A stretch of DNA of 52,102 bases from positions 1-52,102 of the forward strand of contig MNUT01000002.1 of the NCBI GenBank assembly GCA_001871165.1. Direction: 5' to 3'. Below the pieces are notes generated by a model, which saw only the letters and a list, made by a program, of their open reading frames with translations, searched no databases and was not told the DNA's origin. This DNA is from Candidatus Falkowbacteria bacterium CG1_02_37_21. GTDB taxonomy: Bacteria > Patescibacteriota > Patescibacteriia > Patescibacteriales > UBA12465. Made by a program: the position numbers and the translations under genes. Below are positions 1 through 45,753 of the stretch, in pieces. Each line of letters begins with the position of its first letter. Position 1 is the stretch's first letter.

Positions 1-999
1 AAAAGCTATTTCGAGGAGAACCAGCTATTGCCGAGTTCGATTACAATTTCTGCGCTAACCACAAGTCATCCCATAGTGTTGCACGGCTAATGGGTTCGGC
101 CCTCCTTCCATCTTTCGATGGAGTTCAGCCTGCTCATGGTTAGATCACCCGGCTTCGGGTCTTGTCCACGCGACGAATGTATCACTCCCGGGGCACTAAT
201 AAATTAGTGCTCACGAAAGCGATACACAAACGGGCTATTAACCCTCGCTTTCACTATACATGCTCTCCAAAGGAGATTATGTTAGCCACGTAGAACAAAC
301 TCGTTGGCTCATTCTTCAATAGGCACGCCGTCACCCCTTGCGGGGCTCCGACTCTTTGTAAGTATATGGTTTCAGGTACTATTTCACCTCCCTCATCGGG
401 ATGCTTTTCACCTTTCCCTCATGGTACTAGTTCACTATCGATCATAAGAAGTATTTAGTCTTAGGCCATAGTCGGCCTGGCTTCAAACGGGATTTCACGA
501 GTCCCGCCCTACTTAAGAACACTAAAACGAAGTGACTTCTCTTTTCGCGTACCGGGCTATCACCGTCTCTGGCCGAGCTTTCCAACTCGTTCTGCTAAGA
601 GTAATCTTTTTTTACTTCGTCCTGTTGATCTGGCAACAGGTCTTAGGTCTTGCAACACCGAAAAAACATGTGGTTCCAGAACCTTCTGAAATAAATCCGG
701 CGAACCGGACTAATTTCTCAGTTATTTGGGTTTAGACTTCTCCCCTTTCGCTCGCCACTACTTGGGGAATAATTATTATTTTCTTTTCCTCCGGCTAATA
801 AGATGTTTCAGTTCACCGGGTCTTCCCGCCCTATCTTAAAGATTGGGCGTCCTCCGTCTTCAACGGAAGGGGTTTCCCCATTCGGAGATCCGCGGGTCAA
901 AGGTTGCTTGCCACCTCACCGCGGCTTATCGCAGGCTGCTACGTCCTTCATCGTCTTCTTATGTCAAGGCATTCACCATATACTCTTACTGAGATTTTC
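1..999 (-). rRNA. rrl: 23S rRNA, 5' portion (continues beyond the left edge); 5' end approximate
   Basis: Reverse complement contains conserved 23S 5'-domain motifs (TAAGAGTATATGGTGAATGCCTTG, GAACTGAAACATCT, CCCAAGTAGTGGCGAGCGAAA, GTACCATGAGGGAAAGGTGAAAAG, AATAGCTGGTTCTCCTCGAAATAGCT). Confidence 0.97.
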
Positions 1000-12584: not shown

Positions 12585-12995
12585 TTATTTAGTGGATATA
12601 TTATAAGCTTCATGTAATAAAACATTATCCTTCACCCTATCAACAGTGTTACTTGTCGTCTCGCTGCCTACAAATACAATGTTATATGGGATATTAAAAT
12701 CTAAAATACTACTCCAATTTTTATAACTAAAATTTAAAACACTCGCTATTCGATTAAGCAATGCGAAGCCAATATTAACATCTCCATTTTCAACTTTTGA
12801 AATAACCTTTTGGGTAGTTTGGGCTTCTTTAGCTAATTTTTGCTGGCTCATGCTTAAAATTTCTCTAGCGTTATAAATTTCAACTCCTAATTTAATCCTT
12901 TCTTTGGCCTCTTTTGAGTATTGCTCAAAATATTTGCCTTTTCTGGCCTCAGCGATTGGGTCAATTTGCACTTTTTTGTTATTAATATTTTTCAT
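12585..12995 (-). CDS. Xre/Cro HTH antitoxin (HigA-like) with C-terminal extension
   Basis: ARE..SMSQQKLAKEAQTTQKVISKVENG; overlaps the toxin stop. Confidence 0.85.
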   Translation of the reverse strand: MKNINNKKVQIDPIAEARKGKYFEQYSKEAKERIKLGVEIYNAREILSMSQQKLAKEAQTTQKVISKVENGDVNIGFALLNRIASVLNFSYKNWSSILDFNIPYNIVFVGSETTSNTVDRVKDNVLLHEAYNISTK

Positions 12996-13404
12996 AGTTT
13001 TGCGGATTTAATTTAAAAATATTTAAATATTTTTCGCCAATCTTATTTTGTTTCTCTACCATTTTCTTTTCTCTATCCGTGGTGTAACTAGCAGGCTTTT
13101 CAAAAGCATGAAGAAGAACTATTTTTTGCTGATGTCGAAAATAAAGAATTCTAATTACTGTGTTTGCATCTTTCGGATTTAATATTTCAAAACAACTGTA
13201 ACCATGTAGTGGTTTTGAAATCGGGGGAGTCGGTCTGCCTTCATTACATGTAACGTGCTGTATCTTAGCATCTATATCGGCCAATATTTTCTATTTTCTC
13301 TTAGTAACAGTCTATTTATCTTCTTGGTTTGTTAAATATTGTTTTAAATATTTTTTTACTGGACAGATTTTTGAAACTATATCATAAAAATAAACTATTT
13401 CCAT
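12982..13404 (-). pseudogene. RelE/HigB (Gp49-like) toxin with two in-frame TAG codons
   Basis: ATG 13404 MEIVYFYD..CPVKKYL is in frame with ..SKPLHGYSCFEI..RILYF..IVLLHAFEK; TAG at 13312-13314 and 13291-13293. Confidence 0.75.
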
Positions 13405-13539
13405 ATACACATGATTAGATTGATCACTATCTCATTATACCCTATTGGATATAATTGTCAATATCAAATACAAAAGCCCTCCCAAAATGGAAAGGCTCTT
13501 GTAAACACTGGGAGTTATAAATTTATAAATACCCTATAC

Positions 13540-13774
13540 GGAGCGGGTAACGGGAATTTCGCCCTCGCCGGCCGCCGGAATTGCGGCCGGCTCACTTGTC
13601 CTGGGTCAGCGCTAAGCATCCCCCGGATGCTTAGCGACGCTCGCCCGCTCGTTCCGGCTTCCGCCGTTCCCTCGCGTCTCGCTTCTGACCTGTTCGATTC
13701 CCGTAAACTAACACAGCAAAAATAAAAACACAGGATAAAATCCTGTGTTTTTATTTGGAGCGGGTAACGGGAAT
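13540..13774 (-). repeat. tRNA-Gly-linked ~217-bp structured mini-element (copy A)
   Basis: 18-bp direct repeat GGAGCGGGTAACGGGAAT at 13540 and 13757; GC-rich hairpin core homologous to 45459-45697. Confidence 0.85.
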
Positions 13775-13778
13775 CGAA
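13758..13778. repeat. att site (displaced tRNA-Gly 3' end)
   Basis: GAGCGGGTAACGGGAATCGAA identical to 20870-20890. Confidence 0.92.
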
Positions 13779-13976
13779 AGGATAGGAACTATTTTTATAA
13801 TTTATTAAATAGTAGATAAATTTCTTTAATGTTAGAAATTTTTTCACATTTTCTAAGTTATCAGTTTTTATCTGAAATAATGGCTATTTACCACCTTTAC
13901 GTCACAATAGCGTCACACTTTATTTGTGAGGCGACAATATAGGAAGGGTGGTAGTAGTCATTCCTAAACTCATAGT

Positions 13977-14894
13977 TTAAATAATATAATTTAATATTCC
14001 CTTTTCAATCATTTCTAAACTAAAAATATAATCATTATGATTAAAGGCCTCTCTTAACGGCCTCGACGTTGATTTCCATCCGTTACCATCAGTAATCCAA
14101 ACAAATTTATATTGGCCATTTAAAACATTAAATAAATCCCTGTATTCACCGGCCGTTGATTTTAACTTTGAACCGCCACCACCATAAAAATTTGTTTCAA
14201 AAATTACTATATCTTTACCGGTGTTTATAACATAATCATAACGTCTAGAAGATTTATCAACCGGCACATCAAAACCCCATTCACTTTTTATTTTTTCCGA
14301 AGTTGCTTCTTTCAAATATTTAAAACCTTTAGTTTTACAAATATCGGCTATAAAAAAGCCGACAATATCTTCCATGGAATGGCCACCTCTATTTTTACGG
14401 CCGTTGCTATCAAGACCGGCCTCTACGCCAATCATATAATCAACCAGATTTTTAATTTTTTGGGAAATGATTAAATCTTTAAGGCCAGTTTCTTTTACAA
14501 ATAATAAATACTTATCAATATCTTTATCGGTTACCGCCTCTTTAGAAAAATCATAATCCTCATAAACTAGCTTTTTCTTTTTATAATCAACTAGAATTTT
14601 AAATTGATTTGTATTACCACCATCACGAACGACTAAAGCCGGAATAACTTTGATAATTTCTGGATTTTGTTTAACTAAAAACTTAAATTCTTTATCAAAA
14701 TCATCTTTGCCAATTAAATAATTAAGATTATTTAAAGCAATTTCTATTTTTCTGGTGTTTGTAAAAACTTTTTCCCAATTTACGAAATAAGACCAAAGCA
14801 TATTGCTTGGCTTGAGATTATTTAAAAAATAATCGAATACCTCGTCCTCGTTTTTACATCCCAAAACTTCATTATAAAATTTAAGAAATTTCAT
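13977..14894 (-). CDS. DpnII-family type II restriction endonuclease (GATC expected)
   Basis: YFVNWEKV, DYMIGVEAGLDSNGRKNRGG, ETNFYGGGGSK, FVWITDGNGW. Confidence 0.92.
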   Translation of the reverse strand: MKFLKFYNEVLGCKNEDEVFDYFLNNLKPSNMLWSYFVNWEKVFTNTRKIEIALNNLNYLIGKDDFDKEFKFLVKQNPEIIKVIPALVVRDGGNTNQFKILVDYKKKKLVYEDYDFSKEAVTDKDIDKYLLFVKETGLKDLIISQKIKNLVDYMIGVEAGLDSNGRKNRGGHSMEDIVGFFIADICKTKGFKYLKEATSEKIKSEWGFDVPVDKSSRRYDYVINTGKDIVIFETNFYGGGGSKLKSTAGEYRDLFNVLNGQYKFVWITDGNGWKSTSRPLREAFNHNDYIFSLEMIEKGILNYII

Positions 14895-14898
14895 AAAT

Positions 14899-15759
14899 TT
14901 ACTTAATTAAATCCTTATATCTCTTAACTGACAATTCTAAATAATTTTTTTCTAAATCAATACCAATAAATTTTCTATCGTTAAGAGCGCAGGCTAAACC
15001 AGTCGTTGAAGAACCCGTAAATGGGTCGATGACTAAATCACCTTTGTTGGTACTAGCCATAACAATACGAACCAATAGATCTATTGGCTTTTGTGTCGGG
15101 TGCTTACCAAACTTCTTTTCGGTAGGTTTCGGCGTCCCCATAGACCAAACACTGCGCATTTGCAGATTTGGCTTTTTTAAAAAGTCTTCTGGCCAATTAC
15201 CATTTTTCATTAAGTCATAATTAAACTTATGTTTAGTGGTTATTGGTTTTCCGGTTTTAGGATGGACTAATTCTTTTCTCGCCCAGATCAAAGTTTCATG
15301 ACTGGCCGTAAAAAAGCGACAGCTTAAATTTGGTGAAGCATTGGGTTTAAACCAGGCAATATCGTTTAAGATGTGAAACTTGCTAACTTGGAGAGCGAAA
15401 CCGCATTGATAGATAGAGTGATAGGTGCCGGAAATCCAAATTGTGCCTCCTGGCTTTAATACTCTATGGCAAGCCTTAATCCAGGCTAATTGAAACTCAA
15501 AGTCTTTCTTTAGACCATTACTGACGTCCCATTCGCCTTTATTAACGCTAACCATCCGCCCAGCGTGAACGGAAAAACCACCATTAGATAATAAATAAGG
15601 TGGATCAGCGAATATCATATCAACCGAGTTCTCTGGCAAAGTAGCTAAAAATTCCAAGCTATTGGCCTGGTACAATTTAAAGTCTTTATCTTTAAAAAAT
15701 GGATCTAACATTTTTTTGCTTTTTTTCTTAGTTTTTATAGCCTTTTTTGAGGTAGTCAT
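14899..15759 (-). CDS. Beta-class N6-adenine methyltransferase, DpnA (M2.DpnII)-like; alternative start 15711
   Basis: DMIFADPPYLLSNGG...VSVNKGEWD, HPTQKP, DPFTGSSTTG. Confidence 0.9.
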   Translation of the reverse strand: MTTSKKAIKTKKKSKKMLDPFFKDKDFKLYQANSLEFLATLPENSVDMIFADPPYLLSNGGFSVHAGRMVSVNKGEWDVSNGLKKDFEFQLAWIKACHRVLKPGGTIWISGTYHSIYQCGFALQVSKFHILNDIAWFKPNASPNLSCRFFTASHETLIWARKELVHPKTGKPITTKHKFNYDLMKNGNWPEDFLKKPNLQMRSVWSMGTPKPTEKKFGKHPTQKPIDLLVRIVMASTNKGDLVIDPFTGSSTTGLACALNDRKFIGIDLEKNYLELSVKRYKDLIK

Positions 15760-15894
15760 ATTATAGCAAATTGGATATGAAGAAAAGATAAAGTCCTATT
15801 CTCTGGCCTAATTTTACGATTTTTTTAGCCAAAAGTCAAAATAATAAAGGGGGCTATTAAACCCCCTTTAGTACCGAACTGTCAAAAACCAACC

Positions 15895-16200
15895 CTATTT
15901 AGTTATGGGCAAATTTAGGGGGCATTGATTTAGTGAAAGTAAGTTATTATTCCAGTCACCATCACTATACGTTCTAAGAAATGGATATCTTCCATCGTTT
16001 GGACGCACAACGCCGACATCAGACCTTTTATTATTTATTGGGTCTAATACATAAAAAGTGTTAGTTTTTTCGTCAATGCTTTTTATTACGGCTTCACGAG
16101 TCCACATCCAATTATTACTGGGATTCCCCACGTGAGTAATATGTTCGTGTGGACTGTTTCTATCAGGTTTTCTAATACAAGTAATTTGGCAATCTGCCAT
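15895..16200 (-). CDS. DUF3892-like small protein
   Basis: ITCIRKPDRNSPHEHITHVG...FLRT..D...NNLLSL. Confidence 0.8.
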   Translation of the reverse strand: MADCQITCIRKPDRNSPHEHITHVGNPSNNWMWTREAVIKSIDEKTNTFYVLDPINNKRSDVGVVRPNDGRYPFLRTYSDGDWNNNLLSLNQCPLNLPITK

Positions 16201-16479
16201 ATATTTTTAAATTAATTTATTAAATTTGCTAAGATCTGAAAAACCTGTTATACTTTTTTTGCAATGAAGTAAATTAGGAAAAACACGTCATCTTAACTGG
16301 TGCTACGTGTTTTTTTGATCATAGAATTTTAGTATCATATTGATATGTTGACTTAATTAATTAAAACTATTAATATTGAATTAACAAAAAGCCATATAAA
16401 AAATTAGGATTTTCCTGATTTCTTGGCTTTCTGGCGAAAAGTAGACCTTATTGCTTTCCACGGCGCAAGGTCTATTTTT

Positions 16480-16857
16480 TTATTTAGTTACCTCTTTTAG
16501 ATCAATAACGTACATTTTTTCTCCATTATTATCAATTTCTTTAGGTGTATACCGTCCTACGTAATTCAAAAAATCAAAATTGTATTTTCCCCAAAATGAG
16601 TTAGACTTAAAATAACCACCCACACCCGAATTTCTTAGTTTTGCAGTTGCTGGTTCTGACGTTTTAAAAAATTTAAAACCAATCGCCAAATGTTCTCTAT
16701 CAAAAAATATCTTAAGAAAATGATAATCCGATAGATTATATTTATTCATAAACCCCGAACTAAATCCGAAGCCACCGTTTTGCCCAATACTAATTCGTGG
16801 GGCAAACTTGCCCTTATAATCAGTAAATTCATCAAAATTGTAATTATTTTCTTCCAT
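16480..16857 (-). CDS. Hypothetical protein
   Basis: 125-aa ATG ORF within the element; no family recognised. Confidence 0.7.
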   Translation of the reverse strand: MEENNYNFDEFTDYKGKFAPRISIGQNGGFGFSSGFMNKYNLSDYHFLKIFFDREHLAIGFKFFKTSEPATAKLRNSGVGGYFKSNSFWGKYNFDFLNYVGRYTPKEIDNNGEKMYVIDLKEVTK

Positions 16858-17138
16858 ATAGTTTGACTTAATAATATAAATAATTGAATTATAGACATCC
16901 AGTAAGGTACTGAGATAAGTTTAGCAAATTGAAATTGTTTTGTCAAGATAGTAATAGTAAATGGTTAAGTAAAATGAACTGTCGCTAACATTAAACAAAA
17001 ATAAGCATTAATTTAAATAATAGTTGATAACTTGTTAATAACTAAATTGAACAGATAAGAATATTATAATACAATAAAGTAAACAACTAGCTATTATTAA
17101 TGTTGAGATTTTGATAACTAAAGTGATAAAATGCTAAC

Positions 17139-18197
17139 ATGACTGAAAAAGCCAAACAACTCAAAAAGAACCTGGATGTCATAATTGATGAATTTACTGA
17201 CGAATACTATAAGGTTTTATTTTCCCCAAAAAAGATGAAAGTAGGAAATAAGCTATCTATATCCTATGAGCTTCCTCGGCTTTTTGTAATTATTAAAAAA
17301 TACATAAGAGAAATTGAATCTAGCAGAATTTTGGACGGCTTTATGAAAGTCCTAAGACAAGAAGTAAAAGCAAATGATCATGACGGCTCACTATTCGGTG
17401 AAAATTTAAATAAAATAAAAAATAACAAAACAAAATCTTATAACTGGGCTTACTATTCTCTTTTTAAAGCAATGCTAGGAGAAGCAAGTGTTCTTGCGTC
17501 ATCTATGCAAAAAATATTAAAAACGGCTGATGTTAATTCTGCCAAGAAAATGCTAGAAAATACGCAAAAACAAATAGAAGAAATAAAGAACATGGAAGAA
17601 GAAATAATAAAACTGAACCTAGATACTATATTAAGGCCAAAAATATATAAAAAATTTCTTAAAGATTTTCATAAAAGCATTATTTCCTGGGTGAATGCCT
17701 ATATTATGACTTCTGAATTTATAGATGATGAAGAAACAATAACCAAAGAACCTTTAACTGATAAATGGGAAGATGTGGGAATAATATTTAATGATGATAT
17801 AAATATAAAATTAGTAATAGACAACAAAGAGGAAAATTCTGATTACGAAAAATTAGGATTTGCTGACACTAGACGTAATTTATTTAAAAAAGCTGTATAT
17901 GTTAAAAGTTGGAATATTCTAATGCTATTTTCTATTAGAAATGGAGTAATAAAAATGAGTGATTTCGCGGGAAACAAAAACAAAAAAGAACTATTTAAAA
18001 AAGACCGGCAAGACTTATCAAAAAGGCTTAAGCGTTATTTCGGGCTAGCAGACGATCCAATAGTCTATGAACCGGATGGCGAAAGATATCGAATCAGAAT
18101 AAAATTAACCCCATCGCCAGATTTTAGAGATTCCTACCTTGATCAAAAAAAGAAGATATCTGAATATAACAAAAAGGATTTTCTAGGAGATTACTAA
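17139..18197 (+). CDS. Hypothetical protein, C-terminal region possibly winged-helix DNA-binding
   Basis: 352-aa ORF; basic helix then beta hairpin (RQDLSKRLKRYFG..DPI..YRIRI); function inferred. Confidence 0.65.
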   Translation: MTEKAKQLKKNLDVIIDEFTDEYYKVLFSPKKMKVGNKLSISYELPRLFVIIKKYIREIESSRILDGFMKVLRQEVKANDHDGSLFGENLNKIKNNKTKSYNWAYYSLFKAMLGEASVLASSMQKILKTADVNSAKKMLENTQKQIEEIKNMEEEIIKLNLDTILRPKIYKKFLKDFHKSIISWVNAYIMTSEFIDDEETITKEPLTDKWEDVGIIFNDDINIKLVIDNKEENSDYEKLGFADTRRNLFKKAVYVKSWNILMLFSIRNGVIKMSDFAGNKNKKELFKKDRQDLSKRLKRYFGLADDPIVYEPDGERYRIRIKLTPSPDFRDSYLDQKKKISEYNKKDFLGDY

Positions 18198-18404
18198 AGA
18201 AATTTCGTCGCTATTTCCCTGGCAATTTAATCCTCTAACTTACCTAAAGTTAGGGGATTTTTTTATTGCCTAAGAAATTTCGTCCATATAGGTTAGGAGA
18301 CAATCAAAAAGGTCGAGCTCCTCACTAATTCTTAATTCTACTCATATGCTTTTTCGTCAAAAATTATTCCCAATAAACAAACGGTCTAGCGACTACTTAA
18401 TTCT

Positions 18405-18520
18405 TTGCCCGCCTTTCTGTTTTTTTCTTTTTCGGCGGCTACCCCGTGGGGGAGCCGAAAAAGAAAAACAGAGGCGGCAAGATATGCAACGCTTCATACC
18501 TGCTTATTAACTTGATTATA
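18405..18520. other. Candidate rolling-circle double-strand origin (long hairpin plus nick-like motif)
   Basis: 76-bp imperfect inverted repeat 18405-18480; CTTATTAACTTGATTATA at 18503-18520, upstream of rep. Confidence 0.5.
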
Positions 18521-18541
18521 TGCACACTTAAGAACACATCT

Positions 18542-18760
18542 ATGTTTTACACTCCAAAACAAATATTCAAAGACCATGATTATCATTCCTGGCTTAAGGA
18601 ACGAATCCAAAATCTAGAGACGGCTATTAGCGAAAATATGCCCTGTGATAGCACCGATGACATGGAACTTTTGAAAAGAAAATTAGCCTCATACCGACAA
18701 GTCGAGGCTGATTTAGCCAAACAATATGGAATACAAAACGAAATGGATAGTAACCGGTGA
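18542..18760 (+). CDS. Small coiled-coil hypothetical protein
   Basis: 72-aa ORF from ATG 18542, overlapping the rep start. Confidence 0.5.
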   Translation: MFYTPKQIFKDHDYHSWLKERIQNLETAISENMPCDSTDDMELLKRKLASYRQVEADLAKQYGIQNEMDSNR

Positions 18761-19418
18761 CCAGGTTGAAGTTTATAAAAATTCAGTCGGGATTAGGATT
18801 GGCAAACGCAAACATAAAAAGAAAAAGACGATTAAAAAAATAGTTAAAACTATCTCTAAAAAATTAAACGAATTTTCCGTTTACCGCACACGCCGAGCCA
18901 TTAAATGGCGCATTAATTCTAATCCCGATATGAATAAATTTTTAACCCTAACTTTTGCCGAAAATCTGACGGATCTCAAAAGTTGTAATGAAAAATTTAA
19001 AGCCTTTATTAGAAAATTAAAAACGATTAAAGAGAATTTGAAATATTTAGTCGTCCCGGAATTTCAGAAACGTGGTGCCGTTCATTATCACGCCTTGCTC
19101 AATCTTGACTACATCGACCAAAAACAATTAGCGGATTTATGGGGTCATGGATTTATTAAGATTAAAAATATTAAAGACGGAATTAATATGGGTTTATATG
19201 TTTCAAAATATATCGGCAAGGATTTAGAGGATGAACGATACTTCAATAACAAAAAATACTTCTGTTCTCGCAACTTAGACAAACCTATGATTTTTTATTC
19301 ACGAGATGAAATTGATAATTTTTTACAGCTTAATTCTTTGACCCCGACTTACGAAAAAACGTTTCAAAGCTATTATGGCTTGATAAATTATCAACTTTTC
19401 AAATTAGACAAAAAATAA
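18726..19418 (+). CDS. HUH rolling-circle replication initiator
   Basis: Motif I FLTLTF, motif II EFQKRGAVHYH, motif III YVSKY. Confidence 0.9.
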   Translation: MEYKTKWIVTGDQVEVYKNSVGIRIGKRKHKKKKTIKKIVKTISKKLNEFSVYRTRRAIKWRINSNPDMNKFLTLTFAENLTDLKSCNEKFKAFIRKLKTIKENLKYLVVPEFQKRGAVHYHALLNLDYIDQKQLADLWGHGFIKIKNIKDGINMGLYVSKYIGKDLEDERYFNNKKYFCSRNLDKPMIFYSRDEIDNFLQLNSLTPTYEKTFQSYYGLINYQLFKLDKK

Positions 19419-19492
19419 AATTGGTAATAGAGTAATACTGTGACTGGCGTAATCCCGTTTTACGTTCCTGTATTGCTCTTTAATAACTTAAT

Positions 19493-19690
19493 ATGTCAAT
19501 TGACCTAACTACAATTGAATTTCTAACTACTGAGCAATTAGCAGGTCTATTAAATATTTCTAAAACTTCTATATATCGTCTAATTGGAAATCGTTTAATT
19601 CCTTTCTACAAACTCGGCCACAATATACGCTTCAAAAAAGCTGATGTTTTGGATTACTTAGAAAAAAATTGTCTTAGGCCGATTTCATGA
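19493..19690 (+). CDS. Excisionase-like HTH protein
   Basis: FLTTEQLAGLLNISKTSIYRLI...IPFYKLG..IRF; immediately upstream of the integrase. Confidence 0.88.
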   Translation: MSIDLTTIEFLTTEQLAGLLNISKTSIYRLIGNRLIPFYKLGHNIRFKKADVLDYLEKNCLRPIS

Positions 19691-19701
19691 TTATATGATT
19701 T

Positions 19702-20871
19702 ATGAGTATCTATAAACGAAAAAATAAATGGTGGGTAGACTTTAGCTTTCAAAATAAACGCTATCGTTTCTGTAGTCCGGAAAATTCCGCTAGTGGTGCT
19801 AGAGCTTATGAGGGATTATTAAGACAAGGCCTATTAAAAGGAGAAAATATTTCTACCAAAATAGAGCCCTGTCCAGTTTTTTCAGCTTTCGCCGAAAAAT
19901 GGTTTATCAATTATGTTAAATCAAATAATAAGTTCTCTGAGTACTGCAATAAACAAAGCGTTTATAAAGTCCACCTTGAACCATTTTTTGGTAAATTAAG
20001 TCTTGATCAAATTACAGCTTATAAGATAGAAGAATTTAAGGCATTAAAGACCCAGTCTACTCTTGCCCCTAAAACTATCAATAAGATGCTCTCAACCCTC
20101 AGGAAAGCCTTAAATACGGCAGAGGAGTGGGGTTTACTAGTTTCTGTGCCCAAAATTAAGCTTCTAAAAGTACCACCTCAAAAATTTGATTATCTTTTAC
20201 CAGAAGAAGAAGACTTTCTACTAGAAAACACCGAAGGCATATGGCACAATATGATTCTATTAGCTCTTAAGACCGGATTAAGATTTGGCGAGATAATTGC
20301 TTTAAACTGGGAAGACATTGATTTCTCAAATAAACTCCTAACCGTTCGCCATTCCATTGTTCGAGGAATAATGGGAAGTCCAAAAAGTAACAAGATTAGA
20401 TATATTCCAATGACTGATTCTTTATTGGAAATGCTTTGGAATAAATCAAAAAATGAAGATTATATTTTTACTCTAGGAAACAATAAACCAATGAAGCAAA
20501 TTTATTGTTTAAAAAATATGACTCGCATTTGTAAGAAATTAAATATACGCAAAATAGGTTGGCACGTTTTACGCCATACTTTTGCTTCACGCCTAGCAAA
20601 CAACGGAGTTTCTATGAAAGTTATTCAAGAACTTTTAGGCCACTCCGATATTACCACGACAATGCGCTATGCTCATTTGTCGCCGATCACTCTTCGAGAA
20701 TCTATACGCACTTTAGATAATCGAAAAGCCATTGAATTAGAGATATGTCACAAAAATGTCACAAATGTCACAATCACTAATTTAAAAGAGACGGATTTAG
20801 CTCCGGTTAAATCTCAAATTTTCCCCGAAGATAAACAAAAACAGACATCTCTGTCTGTTAATGTTTTGTGA
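19702..20871 (+). CDS. Tyrosine recombinase/integrase
   Basis: Catalytic R (TGLRFGE), K (PKS), HVLRH, LGH, Y (TMRY); stop codon overlaps att. Confidence 0.96.
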   Translation: MSIYKRKNKWWVDFSFQNKRYRFCSPENSASGARAYEGLLRQGLLKGENISTKIEPCPVFSAFAEKWFINYVKSNNKFSEYCNKQSVYKVHLEPFFGKLSLDQITAYKIEEFKALKTQSTLAPKTINKMLSTLRKALNTAEEWGLLVSVPKIKLLKVPPQKFDYLLPEEEDFLLENTEGIWHNMILLALKTGLRFGEIIALNWEDIDFSNKLLTVRHSIVRGIMGSPKSNKIRYIPMTDSLLEMLWNKSKNEDYIFTLGNNKPMKQIYCLKNMTRICKKLNIRKIGWHVLRHTFASRLANNGVSMKVIQELLGHSDITTTMRYAHLSPITLRESIRTLDNRKAIELEICHKNVTNVTITNLKETDLAPVKSQIFPEDKQKQTSLSVNVL

Positions 20872-20890
20872 GCGGGTAACGGGAATCGAA
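20870..20890. repeat. att site within tRNA-Gly
   Basis: Identical to 13758-13778. Confidence 0.92.
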
Positions 20891-20942
20891 CCCGTCTCTT
20901 GAACTTGGCAAGCTCACATAATAACCACTATACGATACCCGC
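20871..20942 (-). tRNA. tRNA-Gly(GCC)
   Basis: Acceptor GCGGGTA/TACCCGC, anticodon loop TTGCCAA, T-loop TTCGATT. Confidence 0.95.
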
Positions 20943-45128: not shown

Positions 45129-45458
45129 ATTATTTTACTTGTATTGGACAGAATAAGTTGTTTTTGTCCACTACAAGTAGTATAATGGACAGGAACGGGA
45201 AAGTCAACAATAATTAGCACTTATGGACGATTAAGAAACCCTAATAGAATACAAGGATAAATATCAGCTCAAATGGAGGAAATTTTTATGGACAAATTAG
45301 CCTATCCAAACCATCATTCCTTCACCGATCATCAGAGGCTTAATGCAGGCCGAGGACATGGTCTTTACCAAGAAATACAAAAATCCCAACAAATTAATTA
45401 AGCTTTGGATTAGAATTGAAGTCAATCAACCGAACTTGGTTATATTAGATACCGTTTG

Positions 45459-45697
45459 GGGTGCCTATCGGGAATTAGCGCGCTCAACCGCCGCCAGAAT
45501 TGCGGCGGTCTCGCTTGTCCAGGGTTGGCGTCCGATATGCCACCCGGCATATCGTCCGACGCTCTCCTTTTCGCTATTTCTTCCGAAATAGCTCAAGACT
45601 CGCTGCCAACCTGTCCGATTCCCCGCGACTACGTCGCTATAATAAAAATAATCCAGAAAATTCTGGATTATTTTTATTATGGGTGCCTATCGGGAAT
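45459..45697 (-). repeat. tRNA-His-linked ~222-bp structured mini-element (copy B)
   Basis: 17-bp direct repeat GGGTGCCTATCGGGAAT at 45459 and 45681; core homologous to 13540-13774. Confidence 0.85.
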
Positions 45698-45753
45698 CGG
45701 ACCCGAAATAACAGGACCACAACCTGCTGTGTTACCACTACACCATAGGCACC
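45682..45753 (-). tRNA. tRNA-His(GTG)
   Basis: G-1, acceptor GTGCCTA/TAGGCAC, C73, loop TTGTGGT; atypical T-loop TCCGATT. Confidence 0.92.

Follow-up and report, generated by a model that had tools for sequence, protein, structure and literature searches.

Results

Copy A, copy B and their surroundings

The window (the whole 52,102-nucleotide stretch of contig MNUT01000002.1 that was analyzed) holds two copies of a short non-coding unit, copy A at a tRNA-Gly fragment and copy B beside tRNA-His, the features of which are collected in Table 1. The initial annotation had read copy A, on the tRNA strand, as a tRNA 3' end followed by a terminator hairpin, an inverted copy of the T-arm, a GC-rich core and a direct repeat of the tRNA 3' end, and we found every one of these parts in place, including an inverted T-arm segment that fits tRNA-Gly and a GGAA loop on the tRNA strand (the complement of 13659-13662). 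The assignment to a tRNA-Gly gene stands in part: the tRNA-Gly 3' end is present, but only as a displaced fragment of 24 nt, with no adjoining tRNA detected by ARAGORN or Rfam, and the intact tRNA-Gly(gcc) gene lies beyond a 7-kb island.

Table 1. Coordinates of copies A and B and of the tRNA genes and island features near them (CM, covariance model; P, helix).
Feature	Position	Strand	Basis or remark
Copy A, whole unit (present/absent between near-identical strains)	13540..13756	-	217 bp; joint 13539 to 13757 in X2, X3 and X8 contigs
Copy A tail, distal direct repeat (equals tRNA-Gly positions 58 to 75)	13540..13557	-	Identical to 13757-13774
Copy A GC-rich structured core	13558..13691	-	134 nt; CM match 13538-13706, 175.5 bits
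Copy A core helix P2	13604-13609/13685-13690	-
Copy A core helix P3	13655-13658/13663-13666	-	GGAA loop
Copy A core helix P4	13612-13621/13625-13634	-
Copy A core helix P5	13567-13575/13583-13591	-
Copy A 5' arm (reverse complement of tRNA-Gly positions 53-65)	13692..13704	-	13 nt; 8-bp pairing with tail (P1)
Copy A spacer	13705..13717	-	13 nt; P0 degenerate here, small GC hairpin (P0) in most other copies
Copy A term1 (AT-rich hairpin between A-run and T-run, part of the unit)	13718..13756	.	Same hairpin recurs with each unit in tandem arrays
3' 24 nt of tRNA-Gly (T-loop to CCA), not a tRNA gene	13756..13779	-	21-nt identity with 20870-20890
term2 (terminator-like hairpin beyond copy A tail)	13469..13503	-
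7-kb integrative island between tRNA-Gly(gcc) and copy A	13781..20869	.	Pfam; bounded by its own 21-nt tRNA repeat
Island DpnII methylase and endonuclease (restriction-modification pair)	13977-15759		Pfam
Island Rep, rolling-circle type (ORF2/G2P-RepSA type)	18726-19418		Pfam
Island HTH_17 excisionase-like gene	19493-19690		Pfam
Island tyrosine integrase	19702-20871	+	Pfam; abuts tRNA-Gly
Intact tRNA-Gly(gcc), original target of copy A	20870..20942	-	ARAGORN, Rfam
Copy B, whole unit	45459-45680	-	Adjoins tRNA-His
Copy B tail, distal repeat (tRNA-His 3' end from position 58)	45459..45475	-	Identical to 45681-45697
Copy B structured core	45476..45612	-	CM match 45456-45627, 172.3 bits
Copy B 5' arm (complement of tRNA-His T-loop and 3' T-stem)	45613..45624	-	Includes unusual C of the His T-loop
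Copy B small hairpin P0	45625..45637	-	5-bp GC stem, 3-nt loop
Copy B term1, AT-rich terminator hairpin	45638..45680	.
Intact tRNA-His(gtg), target of copy B	45681..45752	-	ARAGORN, Rfam

The 18-nt direct repeat that brackets copy A corresponds, on the minus strand, to the tRNA-Gly 3' end from T-loop position 58 onward; the tail also matches the 3' end of the intact tRNA-Gly(gcc) gene at 20870-20886, and its first 8 nt form the 3' strand of the closing helix P1. The GC content of the core is 0.585, compared with 0.27-0.34 in the flanks. Two mechanically called ORFs overlap copy A (13411-13725 on the plus strand and 13515-13847 on the minus strand), but the copies of the unit differ from one another by 1-nt indels, so that no reading frame is conserved and the earlier view that no protein is encoded can be kept. 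That the same architecture occurs at a second tRNA was also correct (copy B), and the linkers said to be common to both cores are indeed shared: a 15-nt linker pattern occurs exactly twice in the window, compared with 0.13 occurrences expected by chance. We found no sigma-70 consensus promoter at copy A or copy B.

The island between tRNA-Gly(gcc) and copy A encodes a DUF3892 protein (Pfam) in addition to the genes in Table 1. Its separate 21-nt repeat implies that the island arrived when copy A was already in place behind tRNA-Gly; the 24-nt fragment serves copy A as its proximal repeat and is also what the island displaced (attR). A like situation exists at tRNA-Glu in another genome (G005), with a 46-nt island repeat that begins within the anticodon stem. 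We considered such integrase islands as parents of the unit and rejected them: with their own repeats (21 nt in the genome studied here, G000, and 46 nt in G005) they are insertions separate from the unit and have merely split the tRNA from an older one.

A conserved fold on the tRNA-sense strand

RNAalifold, applied to four copies, gave -62.2 kcal/mol on the tRNA-sense strand and -36.3 kcal/mol on the other, and the tRNA-sense structure consists of 42 pairs, 25 of them with compensatory changes. In an alignment of 53 copies, which was fitted to the covariance model and to that extent favors the structure, 92.2% of the cells were paired (35-42% with the partners slid), 41 of the 42 pairs had changes on both sides, and none of 500 shuffles reached the observed values. 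That the covariation signal is real is supported by the slid controls and by the fold obtained independently from four sequences. The stems listed in the initial annotation for copies A and B do pair and co-vary. It is the tRNA strand that carries the GGAA tetraloops and the purine-rich conserved junctions. Wobble pairs were tried as a further strand test in 36 copies, and the counts (G-U 55, A-C 23) lean to the tRNA strand, although they are dominated by one pair and are not decisive. Ahead of the 5' arm, most copies have a small 5-bp hairpin (P0), the stems of which also co-vary.

Extent of the family

The structured, tRNA-linked unit is real and extends well beyond the two copies originally reported. 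Further copies in the same 696-kb genome were found by blastn, and a covariance model based on four copies (tRNA-sense strand) made 9 matches there. The same model found units in 24 of 36 other genomes of the genus, with up to 13 matches each (a complete genome is among the 12 that have none), in 3 of 24 from other families of the order, one of which had 14 matches, and in 3 of 150 other genomes sampled from the wider phylum, where the same architecture stands behind tRNA-Gly(tcc), tRNA-Glu and tRNA-Tyr.

A pattern scan of a species-genome collection gave 97 stretches, with loci returned for 80 of them; among these 80 listed loci, the model confirmed 33 but not the remaining 47, which come from many phyla, and a simple arithmetic estimate puts the expected number of chance matches at about 35. 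The titles of the 33 confirmed loci are mostly "Patescibacteria group" or "Candidatus Falkowbacteria", with one "Candidatus Buchananbacteria." A few of the confirmed units are on public contigs labeled "uncultured Gammaproteobacteria" or "Bacteroidales" (L074, L076, L089, L132, L134, L136, L144, L150, L114); these labels or bins may be wrong. In viral contigs a two-block pattern gave 7 stretches, none of them confirmed by the model or lying beside a matching tRNA, and we rejected these as chance matches.

The initial annotation could not assign the element to a named family, and we fared no differently: no Rfam 15 family (HEARO and related models included) matched it at the gathering or E-value threshold, the best sub-threshold score being 22 bits where the cut-offs are 56-230, and a literature search, mostly at the level of listings and abstracts, found no description of such an element. 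The family is well supported and apparently undescribed.

Two loci of this genome deserve separate mention. The best-scoring copy (C14:34955-35123) has no tRNA or tRNA fragment upstream, and its tail ends in CCA and matches none of the tRNAs found in this incomplete genome. Behind tRNA-Ala(ggc), at C11:8000-8130, there is a perfect antisense T-arm; the GC-rich hairpin region after it is of a different sort and shorter, and a distal repeat is missing. The locus represents either a rearranged unit or one of a second kind.

Ends matched to the neighboring tRNA

We examined tRNA linkage in a set of 89 covariance-model matches. Fifty-six of them follow, at a distance of 40-62 nt, a tRNA on the same strand (Glu, Gln, Ser, Gly, His, Trp, Ala, or Tyr) that ARAGORN calls intact, 8 lie behind another unit, 6 at a contig edge, and 19 elsewhere, often behind a degenerate tRNA fragment; an exact upstream repeat of at least 10 nt was present in 10 of the 33 copies that are not next to a tRNA.

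Both ends of the unit follow the tRNA. In the 56 tRNA-linked copies the tail matched its cognate tRNA exactly over a median of 17 nt (longest match per copy), and a tail repeat of at least 14 nt was found in 42 of 56 cognate pairs and in none of 280 non-cognate pairs, where the longest was 9 nt. The repeat nearly always starts at A58, preceded by G57 in the tRNA and by A, or sometimes T, in the unit. Complementarity of at least 9 nt between the 5' arm and the tRNA was found in 49 of 56 cognate pairs and in 66 of 280 non-cognate ones, this high control value being due to the conservation of T-loops. The 5' arm also follows odd T-loops at positions 53-57, such as the C in the His loop (copy B), an Ala loop, and a Gly gene with T at 53. 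These positions fall outside the unit's own tail and repeat, so it is the tRNA, and not just the strand paired with it in the fold, that the arm follows. The inverted segment does follow its neighboring tRNA, as the initial annotation had supposed, and the 3' repeat does so as well.

Unit boundaries, arrays and cargo

In tandem arrays the same AT-rich hairpin stands after every unit and a different terminator only after the last (C8 and C10 with C28 in this genome; the tRNA-Gln locus of G015), from which it follows that the terminator belongs to the unit. At tRNA-Gln(ttg), the distal terminator is conserved among three species and the proximal terminator goes with the unit. The repeats, 17-25 nt long, reach past the mature 3' end into trailer DNA, usually without CCA. 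The unit is therefore defined as about 200-220 bp comprising, in order, tRNA position 58 to the end with the trailer, term1, the small hairpin, the antisense arm of 13-15 nt and the core of about 135 nt. The insertion point is 57|58 of the tRNA gene; the tRNA is rebuilt intact, and its original 3' end is displaced behind the core.

In this genome, contigs end inside arrays of identical units (C8, 20100-20744; C10, 1-500; C28, 1-183), and C28, which carries tRNA-Glu(ttc), evidently joins C10; the element fragments assemblies at tRNA genes.

Some arrays have units interleaved with short cargo segments that are bounded by (often degenerate) tRNA 3' repeats, and several of these segments share a short motif just before the repeat. 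The cargo genes encode EutH; an isochorismatase; an NYN-domain protein; PEP-utilising, NYN and HD proteins; and HAD and ART proteins; no recombinase was found among them. In the complete genome G004, some cargo segments have no unit behind them. The unit-bearing tRNAs are hot spots of serial insertion. An NYN-domain ORF lying between units (L009/L054) was considered as an autonomous partner and rejected, as it sits in a separate repeat-bounded segment and other arrays carry unrelated cargo. At three loci (L035 6880-9130 in G004, L041 6880-7540 in G015, and L037 6520-7830), single-gene segments stand behind tRNAs, each closed by a degenerate tRNA 3' copy and a terminator, in what looks like a tRNA-anchored cassette array. 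In G015 (L041 6509-7686), three units of one array are near-identical except for hairpin P4, which has three discrete forms that also occur in copies A and B and in the C14 copy of this genome. Such discrete variants, shared across genomes, point to recombination among units.

Presence, absence and decay of units

The initial annotation had proposed a search for empty sites in sister strains, and a precise one exists for copy A. In Logan contigs from three other aquifer runs (X2, X3, X8), 13539 is joined directly to 13757, skipping exactly 217 bp, and 18 nt at the joint fit either side. The bridging contig of X2 is 4517 nt long, with 0 and 4 differences over flanks of 640 and 2858 nt and a depth equal to that of the flanks. 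As the 18-nt repeat is, we presume, shorter than the assembler's word length, a graph artefact seems unlikely. This evidence consists of assembled contigs and speaks for the presence of the empty form, not for its frequency or its coexistence with the filled one; weak joints, such as 13778 to 20918 (depth 2.3, side 25), were left out.

Other signs of turnover are identical tandem units in the arrays of this genome and decayed or internally deleted copies behind its tRNA-Gln, Ala, Val and Ser genes. Cores 87-90% identical to each other, with homology running from the antisense arm to the junction, are found in different species at Ser, Gln(ttg), Gln(ctg), Gly and an orphan site. The polymorphic copy A itself is adjoined by the island with the tRNA-Gly-specific tyrosine integrase.

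Candidate enzymes

A co-occurring recombinase, HUH or reverse transcriptase (RT) gene had been suggested as something to look for, and we found none that tracks the units. Tyrosine recombinases (PF00589) are present in 33 of the 36 genus genomes, most of which have a single Xer-like protein of about 320 aa; the complete G004 (4 copies) and the 98%-complete G015 (10 copies) have one PF00589 protein of this size each, neither of them next to an array, and the genome studied here has an Xer-like enzyme (contig C12, 45505-46041 region) plus the island integrase. RT genes (RVT_1) occur in 17 of 36 genus genomes and are absent from the copy-rich G014 and from G004, both of which bear units; IS110-type recombinases (PF01548) occur in 3 of 36, never beside a unit; TnpB (PF07282) was found in none of 4 genus genomes and in the one other genome tested; and serine recombinases were found in 2 of 4 genomes tested. 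We rejected these last four as partner enzymes for lack of association with the units. No unit lies beside any of the tested recombinase or RT genes except by way of the unrelated islands, and the unit has no integrase of its own (217 bp, no conserved frame, and neighboring ORFs of cargo type). As a separate observation, this genome has an IS110-type transposase gene adjoining an NYN-domain gene, as well as two RT genes of 337 aa, the latter possibly belonging to diversity-generating retroelements (C21:19260-21154; C3:1715-2326; C7:11886-12497).

Discussion

A proposed mobile cassette at tRNA genes

The reading that we favor, and to which we would give about an even chance, is that the unit is a non-autonomous, protein-less integrative mini-cassette of Patescibacteria, mobilised in trans and recombining at 57|58. 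A conservative recombination at this point in the T-loop of a matching tRNA gene would insert the unit; the tRNA gene would be rebuilt with the unit's 3' end and terminator, and the original 3' end would be pushed behind the core, where it would pair with the antisense segment and close the fold. Catalysis would come in trans from a tyrosine recombinase, the candidates being the integrase of a tRNA-targeting island (one lies 6 kb away) and the lone Xer-like enzyme; the tRNA-Gly integrase of the island, for its part, could excise copy A through the shared 18-nt block. The tRNA-sense strand, either transcribed or present as folded single-stranded DNA, would be the one on which the fold is read, and the fold would presumably be needed for propagation. 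New units would enter beside the tRNA and push older ones outward, where the older ones would be expected to decay.

Several observations sit uneasily with such a cassette. No recombinase is linked to the units, and G004 and G015 have just one Xer-like tyrosine recombinase each; the integrase islands in G000 and G005 are separate insertions and not parents; and no sigma-70-like promoter was found. An att site recognized by a protein would leave unexplained both the conserved 135-nt fold with its junction sequences and the match of the 5' arm to tRNA positions 53-57. The loss of 217 bp could have come about by slippage or homologous exchange between the 18-nt repeats, with no site-specific enzyme involved, and unequal crossing-over could make tandem arrays. 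Both the antisense arm and the conservation of the fold point to a unit that works as a single folded strand, either DNA (as for attC or CTX) or an RNA guide.

One possible form of this, which we hold to be distinctly less probable than the mini-cassette, is that the folded single strand is itself the recombination substrate, like integron attC or the folded attachment site of phage CTX: in single-stranded DNA of tRNA polarity, P1 would rebuild the tRNA duplex 58-65 and the 5' arm would add the bottom strand of 53-57, one strand would be exchanged at 57|58 with replication resolving the junction, and tRNA genes would be the anchors of integron-like arrays. P1 is indeed the exact target duplex at the junction, with the 5' arm extending one strand only, and a double-stranded circle of only about 200 nt would be very small; the structure is conserved while hairpin variants are shuffled, the units are interleaved with single-gene cargo (EutH, isochorismatase, NYN, HAD, ART, HD) bounded by tRNA 3' repeats and free of recombinases, and an island in the window carries a Rep of the rolling-circle type. 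However, no integron-type integrase was identified, the junction sequences of the core are strongly conserved (in attC they are not), the repeat has 17-25 nt where a short core site would be expected, the cargo segments of G004 can lack a unit, and GGAA loops with purine-rich junctions are more typical of RNA. The last point would suit a guide or scaffold RNA, similar to a bridge RNA, that aims a generic enzyme at the cognate tRNA gene by pairing its 5' arm with the sense strand (53-65) and its 3' tail with the antisense strand (58-76). Each end of the unit can pair with a different strand of one target, with overlap at the junction; folding is better on the tRNA-sense strand, where the GNRA-type loops also lie; the tail is succeeded by a terminator; and the copy-rich genomes have no dedicated integrase. 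Against this, the two "guides" pair with each other in cis, a new tRNA target would need many simultaneous changes, IS110-type recombinases occur in only 3 of 36 genus genomes, and TnpB was found in 0 of the 4 tested. We think this reading improbable.

We regard it as equally improbable that the units are immobile host genes for non-coding RNAs dedicated to the neighboring tRNA (sequestering or monitoring it, for example, via the 13-nt arm), the repeat being simply part of the gene. Several species do have units at shared tRNA loci (Gly-Leu-tmRNA, His-Arg, Gln, Glu), the fold of the units is under selection, and the 5' arm is complementary to the tRNA over 13 nt and to its own tail over only 8 nt. 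It is the turnover that disfavors this explanation: 12 of 36 genus genomes, a complete one included, have no units, presence and absence occur within one population, there are many decayed copies and identical tandem ones, and the same tRNA can have different subfamilies while near-identical cores are found at different tRNAs. A retroelement, in which the boundary at 58 would reflect reverse transcription of the tRNA 3' end stopping at the modified A58 (cf. retroviral primer-binding sites), would account for a repeat that comprises the 18-19 nt 3' of 57/58 in nearly all copies, and this genome has two RT genes. We nevertheless consider it very improbable in view of the distribution of RT genes, which are present in only 17 of 36 genus genomes, missing from G014 and G004 and never adjoin a unit; moreover, the repeats run into trailer DNA, usually without CCA.

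Returning to the mini-cassette and its folded form, the broader proposition that tRNA genes anchor integron-like cassettes, and that a folded strand (RNA or single-stranded DNA) supplies both strands of the T-arm and so aims a generic host enzyme, possibly Xer-like, by base-pairing, is a tentative one that we would not expect to prove right. If true, it would amount to nucleic-acid-programmed, site-specific integration without a dedicated integrase.

Relation to known systems

Integron cassettes are small, promoter-less and arranged in tandem at an attachment site, their attC sites are folded imperfect palindromes conserved in structure, and empty non-coding cassettes exist. The units resemble them in being small and promoter-less, in their tandem arrays and in their conserved fold, but differ in that no integron integrase was identified and in their 17-25-nt repeat, conserved junctions and many tRNA sites per genome. 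Compared by eye with the attC consensus, the unit has no inverse core sites of attC type pairing at the base of the fold; beyond the 8-bp P1 the 5' arm has no 3' partner, and the bases left of the junction are unpaired. The bridge (or seek) RNA of IS110/IS1111 elements has a defined structure, a length of about 170 nt and segments that can pair with either strand of the target. Our unit shares the structure and the complementarity to both strands, but it does not lie beside an IS110 recombinase, has no evident second (donor) loop and gives no Rfam match. Nor does it have the partner enzymes of OMEGA RNAs (TnpB/IscB; TnpB in 0 of 4 genus genomes tested) or of retrons and other RT-linked RNAs (RVT_1 absent from the unit-bearing G004 and G014). 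Cis-mobilisable elements (CIMEs), like other integrase-less derivatives of integrative elements, are att-flanked, lack a recombinase and are presumably mobilised in trans; CIMEs are kilobase-sized deletion derivatives with one target. The unit is likewise att-flanked, without its own recombinase and presumed to be mobilised in trans, but it has a conserved RNA-like fold and a target-tracking arm, neither of which is known from CIMEs. Like MITEs, the units are short, non-coding, multi-copy and non-autonomous; unlike them, they have neither terminal inverted repeats nor a short fixed target duplication (their ends are the tRNA 58-76 block and the conserved end of the core), and their copies are not near-identical but diverged with compensatory changes.

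The closest parallel in behavior is with tRNA-targeting islands and integrative elements that have tyrosine integrases (the T-loop sublocation class and, as a recent example, tycheposons), which also insert in the 3' part of a tRNA gene, restore the gene from the element, leave the displaced fragment as a direct repeat and push earlier insertions outward in series. The unit differs from them in having no integrase or any other gene, in measuring about 217 bp and not kilobases, in its conserved, co-varying fold with an antisense copy of the target's T-arm, and in the spread of one core family over at least 8 tRNA types. In the tycheposons of Prochlorococcus, it is integrase-bearing elements that insert serially at tRNAs and push older ones outward (10.1101/2020.12.28.424599).

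There is a substantial chance that the mechanism of the unit is new. A tRNA attachment block and a large conserved fold pairing with that block, ordinarily found apart, are here combined in one element. Should the fold have a part in choosing the target, it would open a new route to programmable integration; if instead the unit is a cargo RNA, it would represent a new, widespread class of structured RNA that is missing from Rfam. Mobile DNA is considered scarce in the genomes of these ultra-small bacteria; this 0.7-Mb genome has at least 9 intact and several decayed copies of one element. The units lie in arrays with accessory genes and break assemblies at tRNA genes, and on either reading of the fold (target choice or cargo RNA) the covariance model offers a practical way to mark integration hot spots in these genomes, as well as tRNA fragments that have been mis-called.

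Other features of the window

Just downstream of copy A (12585-13284, minus strand), a Gp49/HigB-like toxin ORF of 100 aa overlaps an HTH_3 ORF of 136 aa, and the two are likely to be a toxin-antitoxin pair. At the start of the window (1-999, minus strand) lies the 5' part of a 23S rRNA, in which model positions 1-872 are spread over 999 bases, and it may therefore contain about 130 extra inserted bases.
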